Shown piece after piece: positions 817-23,504 of a DNA stretch of 32,000 nt (positions within the stretch are counted from its first letter, which is position 1; each line of letters opens with the position of its first letter). Below the pieces are notes generated by a model. That model was not told the origin of the DNA. It saw nothing but the letters and a program-made list of their open reading frames with translations, and did no database searches. The stretch lies in contig JAKOXH010000031.1 of assembly GCA_029781135.1 (NCBI GenBank), positions 112,697 through 144,696 on the forward strand. Reading direction: 5' to 3'. Source of the DNA: Planctomycetota bacterium. GTDB taxonomy: Bacteria; Planctomycetota; Planctomycetia; Pirellulales; Lacipirellulaceae. Position numbers and translations under genes: made by a program.

Positions 817-893
817 GGGGGAGGGGACGGGATACGGGGACAGGGGACAGGGTTGCGAGTGCGGAATTGGGAATGGGGAGTGGGGAATTAAGA
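817..893. repeat. G-rich tandem-heptamer tract (GGGGACA / GGGAATG / GGGAGTG units) abutting the cls start codon
   Basis: Sequence is ggggaggggacgggatacggggacaggggacaggg...ggaattgggaatggggagtggggaatt. It is complementary to the tract at 1226-1262. Confidence 0.8.
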
Positions 894-967
894 AAACGTG
901 TTTAGCGGCGGCGGCAACGCCGTCCTATCGCCAAGGGCGCTTGCAGTACAATCGTTTCGGGAATAAG

Positions 968-1003
968 TGACGAATGGGGAATTGGGAATCCGGAGTGGGG
1001 AAT
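968..1003. repeat. Second G-rich copy of the GGGGAAT/GGGGAGT tract
   Basis: Sequence gaatggggaattgggaatccggagtggggaatat, in the same orientation as 866-893. Confidence 0.7.
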
Positions 1004-1225
1004 ATGACCTAAATGAGAACTGTCTGGTCAATGGCACACAAAAACATCAACGAATGCCGCCCCCTTTCCAGTATCGTCTGCGATTTGCTCCTTCACAAAA
1101 AGGCCGATTACTCCCAAAATAAGTGAGTATTGCTGTGACGATGAACCAGCGGTCCGCGCTCCGCTGGCGCGTCGCGGCTAAACGGCCGATCATTAGCGAG
1201 GCAAGAAACGACGATTGAATTGTCT

Positions 1226-1262
1226 TGATTCCCCACTCCCCACTCCCCATTCCCCACTCGCC
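1226..1262. repeat. C-rich arm (reverse complement of the GGGGAGT/GGGGAAT tract) abutting the queD start codon
   Basis: Sequence gattccccactccccactccccattccccactcgcccc, followed directly by ATG at 1265. Confidence 0.8.
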
Positions 1263-3551: not shown

Positions 3552-3656
3552 GGCGCGGGTAGCCTAAGGCGCGGGTAGCCCCCGGCTCTACCGGGGGTTT
3601 GAAGTGGCTCGCCCAACATAGAGCAACGCACTTTGTACCCCCGGCAGAGCCGGGGG
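3548..3656. repeat. Tandem 16-mer (ctaaggcgcgggtagc x2) plus two cccccgg-N5-ccggggg hairpins
   Basis: Tandem copies at 3548-3563 and 3564-3579, overlapping the stop codon. Hairpins at 3579-3597 and 3638-3656. The first is followed only by TTT, so terminator function is uncertain. Confidence 0.7.
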
Positions 3657-3704
3657 CTGACGGCAACAGAAGTGTTGAATTATTCGTTAGGAGCAAATCA
3701 TCCC

Positions 3705-4354: not shown

Positions 4355-4499
4355 GTGCCCATTCGCAGGCGTGCCATGCCCACAGCTCGCCGTGGGCATG
4401 GTATCCTCACGACGGCACGCATGGCCACTCCGAGCAGTGGCCATGGCACCCATGCGAATCCAGGGCATGGCGACCCCGTAGGTAAGGCTTCAGCCTGAC
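4355..4499. repeat. Cluster of REP-like hairpins
   Basis: Hairpins ccatgcccac-N8-gtgggcatgg (4374-4401), catggccact-N6-agtggccatg (4420-4445) and gtaaggcttcagcctgac (4482-4499). Confidence 0.7.
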
Positions 4500-6580: not shown

Positions 6581-6976
6581 ATGGAGACATCGGGACGAGA
6601 ACTTGTGCGGCAGCGTGCCGGCGGCAGGTGTGAGTATTGCCGGCTGCCCGAAGAAGCCGACGAGTGGCCATTCCACTTCGAGCATGTGATTGCGAAACAG
6701 CACGGTGGAACCGATTCGGCCGATAACCTATGCTGGTCGTGCAGTCGCTGCAACTTCTATAAAGGTCCGAATATCGCCAGCATTGACGTTGCCACCGGGG
6801 TGATGGTCGGACTCTTTCATCCTCGCCATGATGTTTGGAAAGAGCATTTTGACGTTCGTGGCCCGCACATCATTGGATTGACTGCTAGGGGCAGGGCAAC
6901 AGTTCGACTGCTCCATATGAATGACGACCGACGTTTGGATTTACGACGTGATTTGATCGAGCGGGAAATCATTTAG
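6581..6976 (+). CDS. HNH endonuclease
   Basis: 131 aa with CEYCRLPE...FHFEHVIAKQHGGTDSADNLCWSCSRCNFYKG, a Cys4 plus H-N-H core. Confidence 0.85.
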   Translation: METSGRELVRQRAGGRCEYCRLPEEADEWPFHFEHVIAKQHGGTDSADNLCWSCSRCNFYKGPNIASIDVATGVMVGLFHPRHDVWKEHFDVRGPHIIGLTARGRATVRLLHMNDDRRLDLRRDLIEREII

Positions 6977-7011: not shown

Positions 7012-8859
7012 ATGCCGCCGGAGGACAAGAGTGCTTCGCGCAACTTCATCCAGCAAATCATCGACGCCGACCGGGCCGCCGGGAAGAACGGTGGGCGGGT
7101 ACACACGCGGTTTCCGCCGGAGCCGAACGGGTATTTGCATATCGGCCATGCGAAGAGCATTTGTCTGAACTTTGGCCTCGCGCAGGAGTTCGGCGGTAAG
7201 TTCAACCTGCGGTTCGACGACACGAACCCGACGAAGGAAGAGCAAGAGTACGTCGACTCGATTGTGGACGATGTCAATTGGCTCATCGCGGCGTTTGGCG
7301 AGACGCAAGGGTTCAGGGCTCAGGGTTCAGAGTCGACATCGGCGGCGCGAACTGAACCCCGAACCCTGAATCCTGAACCCTTGTACGCTTCGGATTACTT
7401 TCAGCAGCTTTACGATTGGGCAATCCAGCTTATCAAAGAAGGCAAGGCATACGTGTGCGACCTATCGGCGGAGGAAGTGCGCGCCCATCGCGGCACACTG
7501 AGCGAGCCAGGCAAGAACAGCCCGTATCGCGATCGCAGCGTGGCTGAGAACTTAGAACTGTTCGAGCAAATGAAGAAGGGCGAGTTCCCCGACGGCACGC
7601 GCACGTTGCGGGCAAAGATCGACATGGCGTCGCCGAACCTCAACCTGCGCGACCCCGTGATGTACCGCATCAAGCATGCGTCGCACCATCGCACGGGCGA
7701 CAAGTGGTGCATCTACCCGTCCTACGATTACACGCACGGCCAAAGCGATTCGATCGAGGGCATTACGCACTCGATTTGCACGCTGGAGTTTGAGAACCAC
7801 CGACCGCTGTACGATTGGTTTTGCCGCGAGTTGCGGATTCATCACCCGCAGCAGATCGAATTCGCGCGGCTCAACCTCACGTACACCGTGATGAGCAAGC
7901 GCAAGCTATTGCAGTTGGTGCAAGAAAAGCACGTGGCCGGTTGGGATGATCCGCGGATGCTCACGATTCGCGGCCTGCGCCGCCGTGGCTACACGCCCGA
8001 GGCAATTCGGGCATTCTGCGAGCGGATCGGCGTGGCGAAGTTCGATAGCACAATCGAAATGACGTGGCTCGAAGACGCCGTCCGCGAGGATCTCAACGAG
8101 CGGGCCCCGCGAGTGATGGCCGTGCTGCGGCCGCTCAAGGTGGTCATCACGAATTATCCCGAGGGGCAAGTCGAGCAGTTGGAAGCGGCAAACCACCCGC
8201 AGAACGCCGCGATGGGCACGCGGCAAGTGCCGTTTGCACGCGAGTTGTACATCGAGGCCGACGACTTCATGGAAGACGCGCCGAAGAAATTCTTCCGGCT
8301 CGCCCCCGGGCGCGAAGTGCGGCTGCGGTACGCGTATTTCATCACTTGCAACGAAGTGGTGAAGGATAAGGCCGGTAACATCATAGAGCTACGCTGCACA
8401 TACGACCCGGCCACCCGCGGCGGCAATGCCCCGGATGGCCGCAAGGTAAAGGGCACGATTCACTGGGTGGCGGCCCCGATGGCTGCGACGGCAGAAATTC
8501 GCGTGTATGACCATTTATTCAAGACCGAGTTTCCTGATGAGGTCGAGGGTCAAGGGTCGAGCGTCGAGGGCCAGACCAAAGTGACCAGCGCTGTATCCTC
8601 ATCCTCTGTCCCTCGACCCTCGACGCTCGACCCTCGACCCCACAGCTTCCTCGACAACATCAACCCCAATTCGCTGACCATCGTCCACGACGCCAAGCTC
8701 GAACCCTCGCTTGCTGCGGCACAGCCTGGCCAGCATTTCCAGTTCGAGCGATTGGGCTACTTCTTCACCGACCCGGTTGCTTCCAAGCCCGGCACCGCCA
8801 TTTTCAATCGCACGGCAACGCTCCGCGATACATGGGCAAAAGAAGCTGGAAAGGAATGA
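7012..8859 (+). CDS. glnS: Glutamine--tRNA ligase
   Basis: 615 aa. HIGH motif [21 protein letters not shown] (KMSKS-like), and class I GlnRS-type sequence throughout. Carries two extra low-complexity segments. Confidence 0.95.
7306..7383. repeat. In-frame hairpin element inside glnS (GGNTCAG heptamer arms)
   Basis: Arm caagggttcagggctcagggttcag, loop, then ctgaaccccgaaccctgaatcctgaacccttg. It is 78 nt, exactly 26 codons ([26 protein letters not shown]). Confidence 0.85.
8541..8640. repeat. In-frame hairpin element inside glnS (GGTCGAG heptamer arms)
   Basis: Arm ggtcgagggtcaagggtcgagcgtcgaggg, a 39-nt loop, then ccctcgaccctcgacgctcgaccctcgacc. Encodes [11 protein letters not shown]...[10 protein letters not shown]. 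Confidence 0.85.
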
Positions 8860-8987: not shown

Positions 8988-11501
8988 ATGGATACCACCC
9001 GAATGTCACGCGCGGCATTGGCAGCGATGTTCATCGTCATCGGGTCATCGCACATTGCGACCACCTTCGCGCAAACCTTCTGGACCGCTGGCACCGGTGA
9101 CTGGAACACGGCGAGCAATTGGAGCCTCGGTGTTCCTGACGCGGGTGGCGGAACCGCGTTCGATGCGGTGATTGAAAACGGCGGTACCGCGCAACTCCTC
9201 GGCCTGCCGGCCGGCAGCGTACGACGGCTCCGCGTGGGGCGCACCGCCGGCGGCGGTCATTTGGTCGTCGATGGCGTGCCTTTGACCGTGACCGAAAACC
9301 TGCATCTCAACGAAACCAGTTCCGCGCCGGCCTCGGTGACCGTGCAAAACGGCGCCACCGTATCGTCGCCGAGCACGATCGTGGGCTATTCCAGCACTCC
9401 CAACACTGATTTCACGATCACCGGAGCAGGCACCACATTCAACGCGGCAACGCAATTTATCGTGGGAAACTCGGGCGCGGGAACTGCCTCGCTCACCGTC
9501 GACGCAGGGGCCGTGCTCACCAGCGGCACGGGCTGGGTCGGTAACGGCTCGGGAGCAACGGGTGTGGCGCTTGTCCGCAACCCCGGCTCCACGTGGTCGA
9601 CCGCCACCACGCTCACCGTGGGCAACACCGGGACCGGCACACTGACGATTGAAGACCAAGGCGTGGTATTCGTTGGTACGGCCCTTGGAATCAACAGCGC
9701 GAGCACCGTCAATCTCAACGGGGGCACGCTCCGCTTCAATACGGTCGGCGGCGCCGGCGGCCTGAGCCGCCTCAATTACACCGCCGGCACGATCCAGCTT
9801 GCCGGCAACCGCGAGATGCTGTTCGATACCACCATTCTTGCCATTTACGGCTCGTCGCCGGTGATTCCCACGGGGAAGGAACTGATTGTCGAAGGAACGA
9901 CCACGGTCCATCAGGATAAGACGCTGAGTGTGAATGGCGGTAGTTTCATTTCACAGGGCCTGCTAACCGTTGGAGCCATGAATTCCGGCAGCGGCACGTT
10001 GCTTGTTTCCTTGGCCGGTACCGCCCAGGCGAAATCTGGTGCGGTCGTCGACCAGTTCGGTTTTGTCCGCGTGAACGGTGCAGGATCGAGTTGGAACGTC
10101 ACCGGCAATCTCAACATCGCTTCCGTCACCCGCGGCGACCTGGTAATCGACAACCAGGGCAGTGTCTACGTCACCGGTGCACTGACACTTGGCTTTTCCA
10201 GCCATTTCACGCTCAATGGCGGCACGATCCGCTTCAACGGCTACAGCCGCACCATACCGTCATCATTGTTCTTCTATCCGGCGGGCACGGTTCAACTTGC
10301 CGGGGATAGGACGATTGGAGGCGATGCGGCGATCCAGGACTTCTTTGGTGCGGCACCCAACATCCCAACGGGCAAAGCGCTCGTAGTGGAAGGCACGGCC
10401 CTGCTAACCTCCACGACGCCCGTGATACTTTCGGGCGGCACCCTCGGCGCGGATACACTACTGCTCTCGCCCGCTAGCCATTTGACGACCGTGCAGCCGT
10501 CCCAAGTATCGGGGGTGGTCCTCGCCCTGGCCGGCTCCGTGATCGATACGACGAACCAGAACCTTTCGCTCGGCGATGCGGCCAAAGTGAACGGCTTTTA
10601 CAGTAATGGCACGTTGCGCGTGGGACAGTCCACTGTGACGCTTCTCGACGCCAACGACGCGGTGTTCGACTCGGCCGCGCTCGTCACGCTCGGTTCCGGG
10701 GGTAGCCCGGGGACAATGGACGCGGCCAACGGCCTGACGCTCGACTTCGGCGGCAACATCCTCGGGACGGGTACGATCAGCACGCCCAACGACATTGCCA
10801 AGCCGCTCATCGTCAATGGCCACATTACGGGCGACAGCGTCGCGCAGTCCATCACGCTCCCCGGCTACGTCAAAGGCGTTGGCACATTCGACAACGTAAA
10901 TTTCACGGGTACGTTTTCACCGGGCCTGTCGCCGACGATTCTCGCCGTGGGCAACGTCGCACTCGCGCCCACCAGTACGCTCGTAATGGAACTAGGCGGC
11001 ACAACGCCCGGCGGCGGCTACGATCAAATCCGATCCTCCGGCGCACTTGCGTTGGGCGGCACGCTGCAGGTGTCACTGATAAATGGCTTCACGCCGGCAG
11101 CCGGCGAGTCATTTAACCTGTTCGATTGGACCGGCACGAGTGGGACATTCGCCACACTCGCCCTGCCGGCGCTTGGCAGCGGCCTCGCCTGGAACACCGC
11201 GCAGCTCTACGCGACCGGCGTCCTCAGCGTAATCGGTGTCGGGCTGCCCGGCGACTACAACAACAACGGCGTGGTCGATGCTGCCGACTATGTACTATGG
11301 CGCAAGAGTCCCAGCTCTTATGGCGGCAGCCCGGCCGGCTACGACACCTGGCGCGCTAATTTCGGCCGAACTGCGGGCAGCGGCGCCAGTTCCGCGCTCT
11401 CCGTCGACACTGCGGTTCCCGAACCAACGAGTTGCGTGTTACTTTTGCTCGCCGCCTTCGTCGTAGGCGGCGTTCATCGATTGAAGAATTTCTTGGCTTG
11501 A
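8988..11501 (+). CDS. Repeat-rich beta-helix-type surface protein (autotransporter/PEP-CTERM-associated repeats) with dockerin-like module and PEP-CTERM anchor
   Basis: Signal peptide MDTTRMSRAALAAMFIVIGSSHIATTFA and an N-terminal W..GTGDWNTASNWS. Has repeated G.GTLTI..QG.V.V...L.....TVNLNGGTLRFN units, GDYNNNGVVDAADYVLWR, and a C-terminal VPEPTSCVLLLLAAFVVGGVHRLK. Confidence 0.8.
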   Translation: MDTTRMSRAALAAMFIVIGSSHIATTFAQTFWTAGTGDWNTASNWSLGVPDAGGGTAFDAVIENGGTAQLLGLPAGSVRRLRVGRTAGGGHLVVDGVPLTVTENLHLNETSSAPASVTVQNGATVSSPSTIVGYSSTPNTDFTITGAGTTFNAATQFIVGNSGAGTASLTVDAGAVLTSGTGWVGNGSGATGVALVRNPGSTWSTATTLTVGNTGTGTLTIEDQGVVFVGTALGINSASTVNLNGGTLRFNTVGGAGGLSRLNYTAGTIQLAGNREMLFDTTILAIYGSSPVIPTGKELIVEGTTTVHQDKTLSVNGGSFISQGLLTVGAMNSGSGTLLVSLAGTAQAKSGAVVDQFGFVRVNGAGSSWNVTGNLNIASVTRGDLVIDNQGSVYVTGALTLGFSSHFTLNGGTIRFNGYSRTIPSSLFFYPAGTVQLAGDRTIGGDAAIQDFFGAAPNIPTGKALVVEGTALLTSTTPVILSGGTLGADTLLLSPASHLTTVQPSQVSGVVLALAGSVIDTTNQNLSLGDAAKVNGFYSNGTLRVGQSTVTLLDANDAVFDSAALVTLGSGGSPGTMDAANGLTLDFGGNILGTGTISTPNDIAKPLIVNGHITGDSVAQSITLPGYVKGVGTFDNVNFTGTFSPGLSPTILAVGNVALAPTSTLVMELGGTTPGGGYDQIRSSGALALGGTLQVSLINGFTPAAGESFNLFDWTGTSGTFATLALPALGSGLAWNTAQLYATGVLSVIGVGLPGDYNNNGVVDAADYVLWRKSPSSYGGSPAGYDTWRANFGRTAGSGASSALSVDTAVPEPTSCVLLLLAAFVVGGVHRLKNFLA

Positions 11502-16110: not shown

Positions 16111-16229
16111 TTCGCAGGCGTCAGGCTTCAGCCTGACCAGTTTTGCGGCGGGATGCCCTATCGTCAGGCTAAAGCCTGACCTACGTTGCGTTACCAATAC
16201 TCGTACCGCAGGAACAGTTCTTGTTCGCG
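16111..16229. repeat. 119-bp direct repeat, copy 1 (two REP-like palindromes plus a remnant of the ABC gene's last 13 codons and stop)
   Basis: Over the 110 nt I aligned base by base, I counted 9 mismatches against 16925-17043, at a constant 814-nt offset. The reverse strand of 16191-16232 reads NREQELFLRYEYW*. Confidence 0.8.
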
Positions 16230-16924: not shown

Positions 16925-17043
16925 GATTCGTAGGTCAGGCTTCAGCCTGACCAGTTTTGCAGTGGGATGCTGTATCGTCAGACTAAAGCCTGACCTACGT
17001 TGCGTTACCAATACACGTATCGCAGGAACAGCTCTTGTTCACG
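16925..17043. repeat. 119-bp direct repeat, copy 2 (overlaps the true 3' end of the ABC gene)
   Basis: See 16111-16229. Contains gtcaggcttcagcctgac and gtcagactaaagcctgac hairpins, plus codons EREQELFLRYVYW*. Confidence 0.8.
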
Positions 17044-20000
17044 TTCGGGCAGGGCTTCGACGTCGGGGACCAGGTAGCGGTTGTCGTCGAGATCAAGGAG
17101 GATCTTGCCGCGTTCGCCGAAGTCTTGCACCTGGCTTTGGCTCCAGCGCATCGTGAATTGGCGCGGGCCGTGGGCGGTGCGGACGTCGAGCGTCAAGTGC
17201 CCAAGCTCGAGCTTGATCGAATCGACGCCCGTGACGGTTTGTAGCCAGTAGCGGCGGTTGAGGGCCTCGCGCACGAGCACGCGGGCTTCCACGGGCCACT
17301 CGTCGAGGCGCCGCACGATGCCGATTTCGTGCTCGGTGCCGTCGCGGTTCCACACGCGGAGGCTGATGTAGTCGTCCGGGTTGGTGGCCGGGAAGAGGTT
17401 GACGGCGAACACACCACGCCACGTGGTCGAGTCTCTCCGAGACTCGAACGAACTGTTAAAGTCTGGCGGTGATTTGGAATCCGCGTCTCGGAGAGACGCC
17501 GCCACATGCACTTCCATGCCGCCGAGGCGGGCGGTGTGGATACGTGTATCGTTGGGCGTGAGCCAGCGTAGCTGACTTGATTGGTTGATGGCCGACGACT
17601 CGGCCGCCAATTCGTCGGTTGAGCGAGCTTCGCCCTGGAGACGCACGAGGTTCGCGTACTGGCCGCCATGAGCGATCAACAGTTCGTGGGTGCCTTGCTC
17701 GACGAGCCGACCGCGATCGAACACCAGAATGCGATCAGAATCGCGCAAGGTCGATAGCCGATGGGCGATGGCGATGGTGGTTCGCCCGCAAGTGAGGGCC
17801 TTGAGGGCTTGCTGAATCGCCTGCTCACTTTCGGCGTCGATGTTGCTCGTCGCTTCGTCGAGCACCAGGATCGGCGGATCGTACAGAATCGCCCGGGCGA
17901 TCGACATCCGTTGCCGTTCGCCGCCAGAAAGTCCGGCACCGCGTTCGCCCAGCCAGGTATCGTAACCCAGCGGCGAGTTGAGAATGAAATCGTGAGCCTG
18001 GGCAGCCTTGGCCGCCGCGATGGCTTGTTCCGGTGTGCTTTCCGGCATCCCGTACACAAGGTTCTGCCAAATCGTACCGCGGAACAGGAACGGGTCTTGG
18101 AGCACGACGCCGATGTGCCGACGCAGCTGCCCAGAAGGCAGCCGTCGCACATCAATGCCATCGACCAACACGCGGCCTTCGCAGACGTCGTAGAACCGGC
18201 AGAGCAAGTTGACGAGCGTCGTTTTGCCGCTGCCGCTTTTGCCCACGATACCGATCGTCTCGCCGGCGCGAATTTCGAAGTCGATATCGCGCAGCACCGG
18301 CTGATGCCGCTCGTAGCCGAACGTAACGTGGTCGAAACGGATATGACCAAGGGCGGAGGGAGTGGGAGAATGGGAGAGTGGGAGAGTGGGAGAATCAGGT
18401 GAGCGGTCGTTCGAAGGGTCTCCCCCTCTCCCCCTCTCCTTGTCTCCCCCTCTATTCATCGAAGTAATTTCGGGTAAGTTCAGAGGATCGGATGGCTCCA
18501 TCACTTCCACCGGCGTATCGAGCAATTCAAATACACGTTGGCAACCGGTAAGAAAGTTAGTCAGCCACGTGGTGAATTGCGAAAGCGTAGCCAACGGCGT
18601 GTAGAACATCGCCAAGTACGCCAGGAACGCCATCAGCGAGCCGAGAGACATGGTGCCGGCAAGAACATCGCGACCGCCGACATACCAGACGATCAGGCCA
18701 CCCAAACTGAAAATGAGTTGCATTGTCGCGGAAAACGCGGCCGTCGAATAATCAACGTGCATGCGACAGGCACGCAGGTAATCGCTAATTTTGTTGAACC
18801 GGGCGAACTCGCGGTCCTCCTGGGCAAAGGCCTTCACGACGCGAATGCCGGAAAGCATGCCGGTGAGCATGCCAGCTTGTTTGGCGCTGGAATCCCAGTA
18901 GCGATAGTGCTTGGGATGGACGTGCTTCCAAAAGAACCAACTGCCGGCGATCACAAGCGGCGCTGGAATTAGCGTGAACAGCGCAAGTTTCGGGTTGAGC
19001 GTCGTGAGCATAATGCCCACAGCTGTCACCTGAACGATTTGTAGCAAGAAACCGCCCGTAATTTGGTGCAACAGGCTTTGAATGACTTCGCTGTCGTACG
19101 CCACGCGACTGGTGATCGAGCCGACTTGATGGCGGTCGTAATAGCCGAGACCCAGCATGTGGAGTTTTTCCACGAGCTTGGCGCGTAGATCGAAGGTAAG
19201 CGCCACGCCGACGCGAGTCGCCATCCGGCCTTTGGCAAAGTTGACCGCACTCAACACGAGCCGAGCGGCGGCGAGCGACGACACGACCACGAACAGGCCG
19301 AAGAACAGGCCGGGGGTGTCGGGCGAGCGTTGACCACTCTTGAGAATGTGATCGACCAGGTATTGCTGCAACTTGGGTGGCGTGAGTTCGGCGGCCACGG
19401 CCAAACACATGAGGCCGCACATCACGAAAGCAGTGACACGATACGGCCACAACATTTGCACGAGCCGAGCAAGGATGGCCTTGCGGGGAATACAGCGCGG
19501 ACAAGCTTCATTCGGCACGGGCAAGCGCTGTCCGCACTTTTCGCAGTGTGTTTTCTTGGGAGTCGCGTCTTCCTGAAACTCGACCTTGCCGTCAGTGCGC
19601 AGGTCTTCCAGGTACTTAGCCAGGCGACTGAAGCGATCGGCCTCAGTATTGGGAAAGCGGGCCAGGTCGACCCAATAGTCGTCGACGTAGGCTTGAAGGA
19701 AGCCGGAGCCAACCGCGTTTTGCGTGCGGAACTCGCGGACCTGGGAAACGGGCACATGCACAACGACGCTTGGCGCCGCAGCGCCGTTTGGTTCACCAGA
19801 TGGCGAGAGGGGGAGAGGGGGAGAGGGGGAGGATCTTGAGTGGAGCGTTTTCGACGGAATCTCCCCCTCTCCCCCTCTCCCATTCTCCCGCTCTTTGGCT
19901 GCCTCGCCCTCTTTGATCGCGGCCACATTTTCGCGCGTGGCCACGATCCAGTTCCGCTCTGGCTCGCCAGACAGCGAGAGCTCGCTGCTGGCACAGAGCA

Positions 20001-20073
20001 GCACGGGCACGCCGTTGAGACCACGACGGTCCAGTTCTTCATGAACATCCACCGGCAATTCTTCAGTAAACAT
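17005..20073 (-). CDS. Multidomain ABC exporter: N-terminal cytoplasmic domain + zinc ribbon + type I exporter TMD + NBD + C-terminal DUF1854-like domain
   Basis: 1022 aa. Contains HCEKCGQRLPVPNEACPRC, six-TM region, Walker A GKSGSGKTT, signature LSGGERQR, and Walker B ILVLDEATS. The roughly 190-aa C-terminal extension ends in ...DDNRYLVPDVEALPEREQELFLRYVYW. Confidence 0.85.
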   Translation of the reverse strand: MFTEELPVDVHEELDRRGLNGVPVLLCASSELSLSGEPERNWIVATRENVAAIKEGEAAKERENGRGGEGEIPSKTLHSRSSPSPPLPLSPSGEPNGAAAPSVVVHVPVSQVREFRTQNAVGSGFLQAYVDDYWVDLARFPNTEADRFSRLAKYLEDLRTDGKVEFQEDATPKKTHCEKCGQRLPVPNEACPRCIPRKAILARLVQMLWPYRVTAFVMCGLMCLAVAAELTPPKLQQYLVDHILKSGQRSPDTPGLFFGLFVVVSSLAAARLVLSAVNFAKGRMATRVGVALTFDLRAKLVEKLHMLGLGYYDRHQVGSITSRVAYDSEVIQSLLHQITGGFLLQIVQVTAVGIMLTTLNPKLALFTLIPAPLVIAGSWFFWKHVHPKHYRYWDSSAKQAGMLTGMLSGIRVVKAFAQEDREFARFNKISDYLRACRMHVDYSTAAFSATMQLIFSLGGLIVWYVGGRDVLAGTMSLGSLMAFLAYLAMFYTPLATLSQFTTWLTNFLTGCQRVFELLDTPVEVMEPSDPLNLPEITSMNRGGDKERGRGGDPSNDRSPDSPTLPLSHSPTPSALGHIRFDHVTFGYERHQPVLRDIDFEIRAGETIGIVGKSGSGKTTLVNLLCRFYDVCEGRVLVDGIDVRRLPSGQLRRHIGVVLQDPFLFRGTIWQNLVYGMPESTPEQAIAAAKAAQAHDFILNSPLGYDTWLGERGAGLSGGERQRMSIARAILYDPPILVLDEATSNIDAESEQAIQQALKALTCGRTTIAIAHRLSTLRDSDRILVFDRGRLVEQGTHELLIAHGGQYANLVRLQGEARSTDELAAESSAINQSSQLRWLTPNDTRIHTARLGGMEVHVAASLRDADSKSPPDFNSSFESRRDSTTWRGVFAVNLFPATNPDDYISLRVWNRDGTEHEIGIVRRLDEWPVEARVLVREALNRRYWLQTVTGVDSIKLELGHLTLDVRTAHGPRQFTMRWSQSQVQDFGERGKILLDLDDNRYLVPDVEALPEREQELFLRYVYW
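18355..18453. repeat. In-frame hairpin element inside the ABC gene (TMD-NBD linker)
   Basis: Arm ggagggagtgggagaatgggagagtgggagagtgggagaat, loop, then tctccccctctccccctctccttgtctccccctct. Encodes RGGDKERGRGGDPSNDRSPDSPTLPLSHSPTPS. Confidence 0.8.
19805..19894. repeat. In-frame hairpin element inside the ABC gene (N-terminal domain)
   Basis: Arm gagagggggagagggggagagggggagg, a 27-nt loop, then tctccccctctccccctctcccattctccc, with about 20 bp of perfect pairing. Encodes GRGGEGEIPSKTLHSRSSPSPPLPLSPS. Confidence 0.85.
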
Positions 20074-22105: not shown

Positions 22106-22170
22106 TGCTTGCCTCTGTTCGCTTCACTGAAGGTTGAAATCTATCTGCTCCGTTAGCCCGTTCTCGATGC

Positions 22171-22256
22171 GAGACAAGGAGACAAGGAGAGGGGGAGACA
22201 AGAAGATCGCGATTCACACTTGTCTCCTTGTGTCCTTGTCTCCTTGTCTTCCTCTC
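22171..22256. repeat. Hairpin element (GAGACAAG octamer arms) between motA and motB
   Basis: Arm gagacaaggagacaaggagagggggagacaag, a 13-nt loop, then cttgtctccttgtgtccttgtctccttgtct. The right arm touches the motA stop codon (22255-22257). Confidence 0.85.
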
Positions 22257-23115
22257 ACGCTGCTTCCGCTTCCTTAAACCAGGCATCCAGCTCTTCGCGT
22301 TCCGGGCGGAACTCCGTCGACACGCTGCGGCGTGCCATTTCGATCGCCACTTTGGGGGGCAAGTTGTTGGCAAAGCCGACAATGGCCGACGCAATTACCT
22401 TGAAGAACGCCCCTTCCTGTAAACCCATGTTATGCAAGCGCACTGAAAGCGGGGCCGCGAAACCGTACGACAACAAAATCCCCAAAAACGTACCTACCAG
22501 GGCCGCCCCCACTTTGTGACCAATCTCGGCCGGTGGGCCATCGATGTGCGCCATCGTGATCACGATGCCCAGCACGGCTGCCACAATCCCAAACCCGGGC
22601 AACGCATCGGCCACCGATTGCAGAGCGTGCGACGGCGCATGGTGCTCGTCTTCCATGATCCGCAGTTCGATTTCCATCAGGTCGGCGATCTGTTCGGGCT
22701 TTACCGTGGCGTCGACCAGCGGCCCCATGCCGCCACAAATGAAGTGCAGCAGATGGTGGTCGTGCGCGACCTTCGGATACTTGTTGAAAATGGTGCTGTC
22801 GTGAGCTTTCGAAAGGTGTGGTTCCAGGGCGAGCATGCCGTCGCGGCGGGCGAGCCGCAGCAAGTCGTAAAGGCATTTGAACGACGCTTCATACGCCGCT
22901 TTGTTGTAGGGTGATCCTTTCAGTGCGCCGATGAGGCCCTTGACCATGTCGATCAAGACCTTCTTGGGCGTGGCGACGATCATCCCGCCCAACGCCGCGC
23001 CACCGATCGTCACGAACTCAGAAGGGTGAATGAGCGCGCCGATCTGCCCGCCGGCCATCATGAAGCCGCCGAGTACCGAGCCAATGACAACAAGAATACC
23101 AACGATTACAAGCAT
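22255..23115 (-). CDS. motA: Flagellar motor stator protein MotA
   Basis: 286 aa, collinear with my memory of E. coli MotA: MLVIVGILVVIGSVLGGFMMAGG..., LPGFGIVAAVLGIV, ALVGTFLGILLSYGF. Confidence 0.9.
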   Translation of the reverse strand: MLVIVGILVVIGSVLGGFMMAGGQIGALIHPSEFVTIGGAALGGMIVATPKKVLIDMVKGLIGALKGSPYNKAAYEASFKCLYDLLRLARRDGMLALEPHLSKAHDSTIFNKYPKVAHDHHLLHFICGGMGPLVDATVKPEQIADLMEIELRIMEDEHHAPSHALQSVADALPGFGIVAAVLGIVITMAHIDGPPAEIGHKVGAALVGTFLGILLSYGFAAPLSVRLHNMGLQEGAFFKVIASAIVGFANNLPPKVAIEMARRSVSTEFRPEREELDAWFKEAEAA

Positions 23116-23396: not shown

Positions 23397-23504
23397 TGTG
23401 GGAGAGGTCTCCGACCCCGATGGGACGCCGTGCTTCAATCCGTTCTCGAAGTTGGCGCGAAATCGGCGTCGGAGACGCCTCCCACACAGCTCCCACACAG
23501 CTCC
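23397..23504. repeat. Inverted REP-like pair plus tandem 11-mer
   Basis: tgtgggagaggtctccgac (23397-23415) pairs with gtcggagacgcctcccaca (23468-23486). ctcccacacag is tandemly repeated at 23479-23500. Confidence 0.7.

Follow-up and report, generated by a model that had tools for sequence, protein, structure and literature searches.

In-frame tandem-arm hairpins in the glutaminyl-tRNA synthetase gene of a planctomycete and at reused positions among its relatives

The glnS locus and its site-B hairpin

The 32,000-nt stretch of DNA analysed here, referred to throughout as the window, comes from a Planctomycetota bacterium of the family Lacipirellulaceae (GenBank assembly GCA_029781135.1, contig JAKOXH010000031.1, forward-strand positions 112,697 to 144,696) and contains a glnS gene, encoding glutaminyl-tRNA synthetase (GlnRS), that hosts two in-frame hairpin-forming palindromes. 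The hairpin at 7306-7383 is called site A and the hairpin at 8538-8642, the main subject of this report, is called site B. The gene and the parts of the site-B hairpin are as follows.

7012..8859, plus strand: glnS open reading frame (ORF), GlnRS, 615 aa, host of the two in-frame hairpins (ORF list, PDB matches, Pfam)
8538..8642, plus strand: site-B hairpin, full extent, with 38-nt arms of which 33/38 positions are paired (repeat search, fold)
8541..8570, plus strand: G-rich arm ggtcgagggtcaagggtcgagcgtcgaggg, units GGTCGAG GGTCAAG GGTCGAG CGTCGAG GG, period 7 (sequence, repeat search, Tandem Repeats Finder, TRF)
8568..8577, plus strand: inner-stem core GGGCCAGACC, pairing with TCTGTCCC at 8605-8612 (fold, comparison with relatives)
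8571..8609, plus strand: 39 nt between the arrays, including an unpaired apical loop of ~29 nt (8576-8604)
8610..8639, plus strand: C-rich arm ccctcgaccctcgacgctcgaccctcgacc, units CCCTCGA CCCTCGA CGCTCGA CCCTCGA CC (sequence, repeat search, TRF)

The two arms are heptamer arrays, in which TRF counted 4.3 copies of GGTCGAG (G arm) and 4.4 copies of CCCTCGA (C arm) at period 7, and the C arm carries the heptamer set of the G arm with its register moved by one unit. A preliminary description of this DNA, made from the sequence alone, had proposed heptamer arms around a 39-nt loop, in frame in the anticodon-binding region of glnS and with a unit unlike that of 7306-7383; the loop (8571-8609), the position (ORF 7012-8859, domain PF20974, 29 stop-free codons) and the difference between the units (GGTCGAG vs GGGTTCA) were all confirmed. 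The limits it gave, 8541-8640, were right at the start and needed correction at the end, since the C arm stops one base earlier, at 8639. Pairing reaches 8538-8575 on one side and 8605-8642 on the other, a stem of 38 nt with 87% complementarity in which the repeat search found a 24-nt core at 96%, and the ends of the element read ...GATGA/GGTCGAGG and CTCGACC/CCACAG, with a slash at each boundary. The RNA fold of 8531-8650 was calculated at -64.6 kcal/mol vs -37.8 +/- 3.7 kcal/mol for 200 dinucleotide shuffles (z = -7.2), none of which was as stable (0/200), and the pairing is far beyond chance.

The identity of the host protein is clear from its best match among PDB structures, the GlnRS of Pseudomonas aeruginosa (E = 2.7e-229), and from its Pfam domains, PF00749 (residues 30-362), PF03950 (365-465) and PF20974 (482-587), the last of which is the second anticodon-binding domain and contains the site-B segment. 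Compared with the P. aeruginosa and Escherichia coli structures, the protein has extra segments at residues ~92-121 and ~517-544. Both of these enzymes have the short native loop PDDAPEGKT at site B, and relative to an empty site (DDAPEGKT) the window has a net gain of 87 nt, or 29 codons, in frame and with no stop. Among 120 GlnRS homologues from Lacipirellulaceae and Pirellulales (75-89% identity, 561-612 aa), about 75 have the native loop PDDAPEGKTFLD where the window has 29 additional residues. The 90% cluster to which this GlnRS belongs has only two other members, P0001 and the fragment P0122, each with the native loop, and the syntenic loci L081 and L083 are empty at site B, where they read GAT GAT GCG CCC GAG GGG AAG ACC TTC. 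Even the close relatives are diverged from the window gene, with fourfold-degenerate-site identities of 0.59-0.64. At a greater distance, the insert was present in none of the 160 listed GlnRS loci of other phyla (gene ~1650 nt); the loci listed by the metagenome GlnRS protein scan are only 57-66% identical and served as controls.

Judged by these alignments, site B is shown to be a lineage-restricted insertion into an ancestral loop that was short. Protein-level conservation of the segment in distant GlnRS homologues, which the preliminary description had named as the result that would count against it, was not observed, the insert being missing from distant and closest homologues alike. Longer GlnRS matches in L005, L011 and L073 were considered as possible inserts and rejected as tblastn read-through beyond the stop codon. 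Gain of site B by way of a long recombination tract was also rejected, as the gene is closest to L081/L083 in every 150-nt interval. An AlphaFold model built with 49 close homologues had a mean pLDDT of 52, with values below 50 in the insert, as in more than half of the protein, and was not used for localisation.

Tandem-arm hairpins and the positions they occupy

The site-B hairpin is one of a class of elements that we call tandem-arm hairpins (TAHs), in which 3-5 tandem G-rich 7/8-nt units form the 5' arm, complementary C-rich units the 3' arm, and a non-conserved sequence the loop between them, and which were detected with thresholds of at least 18 nt for the arm, at least 78% for pairing and at least 0.7 for periodicity in both arms. 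Nineteen TAHs were found in 177 kb from twelve Lacipirellulaceae loci vs 8 in 1.37 Mb from other phyla, an enrichment of about 20-fold. Periods in the 19 elements are exclusively 7 or 8 nt, and the G-rich arm comes first in 18 of them, as it does at site B, with no C-first element; the polarity is identical when read from either strand, and over 13 independent TAHs it corresponds to a probability of 2^-13. The units differ by site yet are alike (GGGTTCA, GGGTCGA, GGTGTCA, GGCGGAA, GAGAGGGG, GAGACAAG and GAGAATGG), those of different sites being 1-3 substitutions apart, and GAGACAAG, AGGTGTC and GAGAGGGG turn up again at other loci. Three octamer TAHs that lie inside 4 kb of the window have mosaic units in common and unrelated loops. 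The tetramer TCGA, considered as a common loop motif because it occurs in 6/11 loops, is frequent in these genomes (p = 0.05) and was dropped. We found no description of this tandem-arm, G-first architecture in the literature searched, including that on Planctomycetes.

Elsewhere in the window, where the TAHs have fold energies of -48 to -70 kcal/mol, the following were recorded.

7306..7383, plus strand: site-A TAH, units GGGTTCA / TGAACCC, a 72-nt insert in the glnS catalytic domain (repeat search, TRF, relatives)
18363..18453, minus strand: TAH, 8-nt units GGGAGAGT / TCTCCCCC, in frame in the linker between the transmembrane and nucleotide-binding domains of the ATP-binding cassette (ABC) transporter ORF 17005-20073
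19798..19894, minus strand: TAH, 8-nt units GAGAGGGG / TCTCCCCC, in frame and close to the N-terminal end of ABC transporter ORF 17005-20073
22169..22260, no strand assigned: TAH, GAGACAAG / CTTGTCTC, filling the motA-motB spacer
836..1259, no strand assigned: G-rich heptamer arrays at 836-888 and 972-1003 and their complement at 1230-1259, flanking the region upstream of the PTPS gene

The arrays upstream of PTPS look like a long-loop version of the TAH architecture around a probable promoter region. They are present in two genomes, 200-340 nt apart, with units GGGGAGT/GGGAATG in the window and CTGGATG in L173 (9894-10218). G-first TAHs also occur occasionally outside Planctomycetes, as in a metagenome-assembled genome (MAG) of Deltaproteobacteria (L040, 1100-1214, (GGAGTAAT)n), and the unclassified metagenome contig L154 holds two (7364-7443 and 8019-8078), so that the architecture is not strictly confined to Lacipirellulaceae.

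Site A, the sister hairpin in glnS, has arms of 23-28 nt and a fold z of -4.7. Its orthologues were identified in L081, L082, L170, P0005 and P0006, and in all in at least 6 assemblies (NCBI, JGI, ENA, Logan); it is missing from L083, the sister of L081. Three G-units are present in three genomes and four in L170. Between genomes that agree at 56-64% of fourfold sites, the insert retains an identity of 70-76%, with arms that are almost invariant and a loop that is unalignable. Covariation is about nil over 22 pairs (1 compensatory, 4 one-sided and 5 broken pair cells; covariation term +0.19). The preliminary description had taken two such elements in one essential gene as speaking against a single fortuitous insertion, and this is borne out, as both belong to a dense, genome-wide class.

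Relatives of the site-B hairpin were recognised by its inner stem. In the window, L082, L086, L087 and L171 the G arm is followed by the motif G[GA][GT]CCAGA[AC], and the complement of that motif (e.g. CTGGCCC) stands before the C arm; in L085 the complement on the C-arm side, TCTGGCCC, is likewise in place, but the G arm is of another kind. Six genomes thus have the inner stem G[GA][GT]CCAGA...CTGGCCC in common, and the outer units differ.

Window: GGGTCGA / TCGACCC
L087: GGCGGAA / TTCCGCC
L082: GGGCGGA vs CCCTCAG
L086: C arm CCCTCAA
L171: C arm CCCTAAG

The C arm of L085, TCTGGCCCTGGACCCTCGACTCTTGACTCTCGACC, agrees with that of the window at 30/35 positions, its G arm consists of (GGAATGC)4, and the outermost stems resemble the GGCGGAA type, which suggests a composite. 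A reversed insert orientation in L085 was considered and withdrawn (same-strand C-arm match 30/35 vs reverse-complement G-arm match 32/36), orientation being ambiguous there because the arms are self-complementary. Complementarity between the arms has been lost in L082, L086, L171 and L085. Across the sequences compared, the arrays are shown to turn over around a conserved inner hairpin, at times concertedly on both arms (window, L087). Replication slippage, which the preliminary description had proposed to look for as variation in heptamer copy number between strains or reads, is supported between genomes, at that level only: orthologous or homologous elements vary in how many units they have and in the sequence of those units, and the copy-number differences among orthologues are as slippage predicts.

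The reading frame leaves a clear imprint on these arrays. (GGTCGAG)n is free of stops in every frame on both strands, and the inserts at site A (+72 nt) and site B (+87 nt) are both multiples of 3. Because a period of 7 is not a multiple of 3, the site-B peptide is not repetitive at the unit level, and the absence of a peptide repeat therefore points to an origin at the DNA level rather than the protein level. At site A, where the C-unit is CTGAACC, precisely the copy in which TGA would fall in frame is altered to CCGAACC in the window and in L081, L082 and L170. In the AGGTGTC family the unit with the in-frame TGA, CTGACAC, reads CCTCACG in L081 and CCGACAC in L173, and in the CCCTAAG array of L171 the in-frame TAA reads TAT. 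An exact complement of the C-arm unit would introduce stops in L082, L086 and L171, and in these three genomes the G arm is built from another, stop-free unit. Intergenic TAHs use stop-containing units freely. The avoidance of in-frame stops implies read-through translation and speaks against both splicing and ribosomal bypass, and we infer that purifying selection on the frame determines which units survive in each arm.

Site B of GlnRS has received at least 6-7 kinds of insert among the 120 homologues.

GGGRKAEGG...PQPSAL or LPPSAFPLPPS: 11 sequences
VPSRSGEPSRT...AARLAAPTG: 10 sequences; in L169 a GTAG-type doublet of repetitive extragenic palindromes (REPs), with a clean insertion point at CCGA^GGGG
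PPLPPGEGRGEG...: 9 sequences
GTRSVPAT-type REPs
The inserts of P0117, of P0110 and of the window itself

REP doublets of the GTAG type occupy the site-B loop in L169, P0114 and P0115. A third GlnRS loop, at residue ~398 (~8200 in the window, where it is empty), has GTAG-type REP inserts (VAGTLRVPS...DGTRSVPAT) in P0057, P0118 and P0119, and the same REP is also found inter- or intragenically in L082 (8080-8159) and L173 (8606-8685).

The ABC transporter (17005-20073, minus strand, with a DUF1854 tail) has a similar history of insertion. In the window it contains three in-frame hairpins, those at 18363-18453 and 19798-19894 and a third, not of the tandem kind, at 17420-17508. Elements of at least 8 kinds expand the native linker, PVDLPKVEGHIKFEDV, in 34/103 homologues, and expansions are also present at the N-terminal site in 17/103 and at two C-terminal sites in 30/103 and 40/103; homologues range from 923 to 1057 aa because these four sites hold varied palindromic inserts. 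In L169 one palindromic element of ~145 nt is present in frame twice in this gene (9863-10008 and 10905-11048), with arms GGGTGCCACTGGC..GCCAGTG, a 98-nt loop and two homologous peptides of ~50 aa, and elements of its type were also seen in P0156, P0160, P0164 and P0221. At the identical linker position the window and L083 have a hairpin of the 8-nt GAGAGGGG type and L081 one of the 7-nt AGGTGTC type, the latter also found in L173, P0141 and P0154. Since L081 is sister to L083 (fourfold identity 0.74-0.76), periods of 7 vs 8 nt at one position indicate replacement and not gradual change. Between the window and L083 the linker arms differ at ~4/66 positions by hand count, vs 37% at fourfold sites.

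The motA-motB spacer carries a TAH in all four genomes for which DNA was available (4/4), with four different units, GAGACAAG, GGTGAGTA, TTAGCTA and GAGTTGA, which could represent either conservation of an intercistronic structure or a strong target preference.

Window: 22169-22260
L086: 17015-17102
L087: 6606-6723
L172: ~3560-3640

Origin and persistence of the insert

Palindromic repeats within coding sequences have precedents. Intragenic REPs, tagged GTAG/CGTC, are documented in several species including Opitutus terrae, a member of the Planctomycetes-Verrucomicrobia-Chlamydiae group, and REP dimers fold into larger hairpins that are sometimes located in ORFs, where they contribute 20-30 extra residues and can occur twice per ORF; many tyrosine transposase genes are present in Rhodopirellula baltica, and Rickettsia palindromic elements (RPEs) are cited as in-frame palindromic repeats in functional genes (PMC3733652). 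Site B resembles the RPEs as a small hairpin-forming palindrome that sits in frame in a functional, often essential gene, where it adds a tolerated, translated loop, and in the presence of several such elements per gene; like them it is in frame and absent from orthologues, and it is a stable palindrome (38-nt arms, 87%). It differs in that its arms are tandem 7/8-nt units, its loops are unconserved and no second copy was found, and in its hosts, which are free-living bacteria of another phylum with large genomes. RPEs, said to have been described by Ogata and co-workers in 2000, reportedly form families of ~100-150 bp whose sequence is conserved and which are present many times in a genome.

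We favour, with a probability of roughly 0.55, the interpretation of the site-B hairpin as a palindromic insertion, selfish or neutral, that is tolerated and translated and requires no benefit to the host. The phenomenon, in-frame palindromic repeats, would be a known one, in a tandem-arm, G-first form that is apparently undescribed. A small palindromic element would have entered glnS without shifting the frame, at a permissive loop on the surface of the enzyme's second anticodon-binding domain, probably by hairpin- or single-stranded-DNA-dependent transposition or by template switching, perhaps with a preference for existing hairpins as targets. Its arms would then have expanded, contracted and changed unit through replication slippage and arm-to-arm templating, and the insert would be translated as a low-complexity extension of ~29 residues.

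Several observations weigh against this interpretation. A search of the 32-kb window and of 177 kb from relatives gave no further copy with this loop, and the loops of non-orthologous TAHs are unrelated, so that the multi-copy, conserved-sequence signature of classical MITEs (miniature transposable elements with inverted repeats) or of REPINs, hairpins formed by paired REPs, is missing. The 37-aa insert peptide had no relative among 1.84 billion representatives, and a query with idealised arms matched only short spurious ORFs over single arrays. Site B has neither a target-site duplication nor a conserved terminal motif, no flanking direct repeat was found at the other TAHs, no transposase is encoded in the 32-kb window, and no recombination tract surrounds site B in the window glnS. 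The inner stem is shared with distant relatives while the nearest relatives are empty. The inner end of the G arm, CGAGGGCCAGACC, resembles the native CGAGGGGAAGACC (p ~0.02), as would fit a local origin. Finally, the arms at site A and in the ABC linker are more conserved than fourfold sites, which is unexpected for neutral junk; their conservation exceeds neutral decay, yet it is unlike that of the usual selected RNA helix, and it keeps a functional or self-maintaining role alive.

The palindrome might instead have arisen purely locally and de novo, the native loop sequence being tandemly duplicated by slippage and an inverted copy then added by template switching or snap-back break repair. 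It would grow and renew itself in place with no mobile element involved, every position making its own hairpin. We regard this as unlikely. The resemblance of CGAGGGCCAGACC to CGAGGGGAAGACC, matched equally well by just 2% of other glnS 19-mers, argues for it, but the same native-seed test was not significant at site A (p = 0.2). Loops that are unique to each position, with no dispersed copies found, are as expected of hairpins made on the spot, as are positions that persist while units differ (motA-motB in 4/4 genomes, the PTPS upstream region in 2/2, and site B, where the inner stem is shared), and the G-first polarity, 18 to 0, could reflect a directional mechanism of synthesis. Harder to reconcile with local growth are the identical units at unrelated positions and in different genomes, with other units only 1-3 substitutions apart, the replacement of a period of 7 by 8 or the reverse at one ABC-linker position (L081 vs L083), and the occupation of these same sites by bona fide multi-copy REP-like elements.

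TAHs may represent a kind of bacterial genetic element that has gone undescribed, or may result from a mutational process that has, with telomere-like G-rich 7/8-nt arrays always 5' of their C-rich complement, hypervariable loops, and fixed positions (loops of essential proteins and the motA-motB spacer among them) that are re-occupied or overwritten by new units in the course of time. Such a pattern would fit a hairpin-homing element that replaces earlier hairpins, or enzymatic repeat addition or snap-back repair at both 3' ends of a break, neither of which would be an ordinary transposon family. We consider this reading unlikely.

Retention of the hairpin for a function, whether as an mRNA structure that slows ribosomes at domain boundaries or that, like REPs between cistrons, stabilises or partitions transcripts, as the site of a unit-binding protein, or as the source of a useful peptide, seems improbable to us. 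The slower change of arms than of fourfold sites (site A and ABC linker, above), the TAH in the motA-motB spacer of 4/4 genomes and the very stable folds would be consistent with it. Weighing on the other side, GlnRS does not need the site-B insert, which most of the family and the nearest relatives lack; the near absence of covariation at site A and the loss of complementarity in four of the site-B relatives are not what a selected helix would predict, no Rfam family was matched, and a 7/8-nt period speaks against selection on a peptide repeat.

An assembly or amplification artefact, such as a fold-back chimera in the MAG, is hardly credible: the exact insert does occur in one assembly only (a 199-kb NCBI contig), but its arms are imperfect (87%), with variant units and a shifted register, the insert is in frame with no stops, and homologous hairpins with the same inner stem at site B come from five independent assemblies, in addition to the orthologues of site A in at least six.

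If site B is indeed a tolerated palindromic insertion, then free-living planctomycetes with large genomes carry in-frame palindromes in essential genes at a scale so far linked mainly with Rickettsia, and in an architecture of their own, with arms of tandem heptamers or octamers, a strict G-first polarity and loops that are not retained. Such inserts would inflate and diversify housekeeping proteins (GlnRS of 561-615 aa and ABC transporters of 923-1057 aa within one family), mark permissive loops that could be used in protein engineering, and complicate both the annotation of MAGs and phylogenetic alignment. Positional persistence combined with the turnover of units would offer a tractable natural system for studying the birth, maintenance and replacement of palindromes in bacterial chromosomes, one that bears also on whether very stable intragenic mRNA hairpins are neutral.

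Related systems and other features of the window

REPINs resemble site B in overall shape, two inverted arms and a loop, but each site-B arm is a tandem 7-nt array and not a unique palindrome of 20-40 bp. Neither GTAG nor CGTC, the end tags of REPs and REPINs, was present at the ends of site B, CGTC occurring only inside one variant unit per arm, and the genuine GTAG-tagged REPs of the window, at 16929-16999, are dissimilar to the site-B hairpin. REPs and REPINs are mobilised by REP-associated tyrosine transposases (RAYTs). MITEs likewise are small and non-coding, with inverted terminal arms and presence/absence polymorphism between relatives; site B has the inverted arms, but no flanking target-site duplication, conserved internal sequence or parent insertion sequence identifiable in the window.

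Tandem heptanucleotide arrays in a bacterial genome also recall the short tandemly repeated repetitive (STRR) sequences, heptamers that Mazel and co-workers are said to have reported in 1990 as tandem arrays dispersed in heterocystous cyanobacteria. To our knowledge, STRRs have been described as direct, mostly intergenic arrays, and not as G-first inverted pairs or as in-frame inserts in essential genes. In organelles, the repetitive hairpin elements (RHEs) of sponge mitochondria are hairpin-forming repeats that repeatedly invade genomes, sometimes including coding regions, and the byp elements of yeast mitochondria are skipped by the ribosome. TAHs differ from byps in that their avoidance of stops shows read-through translation, and also in host and architecture.

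Other candidate explanations for a segment of this kind were examined and set aside. An intein, self-splicing intron or IStron was rejected, as a low-complexity peptide of 29 aa is too short for an intein and the avoidance of stops implies translation. Programmed translational bypass, as in T4 gene 60 and the byps, was rejected on account of an insert that is a multiple of 3 and stop-free, with in-frame stops mutated away in sister elements. A phase-variable contingency locus was rejected as well, the host being an essential, single-copy aminoacyl-tRNA synthetase whose frame is kept in every version despite differing unit numbers. An Rfam search with the hairpins returned no family at threshold, only sub-threshold miRNA-like long-hairpin look-alikes.

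Long, perfect single arrays of (GGTCGAG)n / (CCCTCGA)n were called as short ORFs (P0244-P0276) on very large ENA contigs and in cryptophyte data. These contigs have AT-rich, eukaryote-like flanks, and the heptamer there is a simple satellite that is unrelated to the hairpin architecture.

Directly upstream of glnS, at 6581-6976, is an HNH endonuclease gene (PF01844), as in the P0066 genome, and in its place two small ORFs (71 aa and 102-106 aa) are found in L081, L083, L087 and L170; no clear correlation was seen between the HNH gene and occupancy of site B. Ordinary REP-like palindromes are located in the window at 2023-2097 and 23397-23486, at 16120-16180 and 16929-16999, at 3577-3658 and at 4361-4459. 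Two copies have the arm ATCGGCGTCGGAGACGCCTCCCACA in common, and two have GTCAGGCT..AGCCTGAC, of which one is GTAG-tagged (CGTAGGTCAGG...). The palindrome at 3577-3658 is conserved in L083 (1552-1630).

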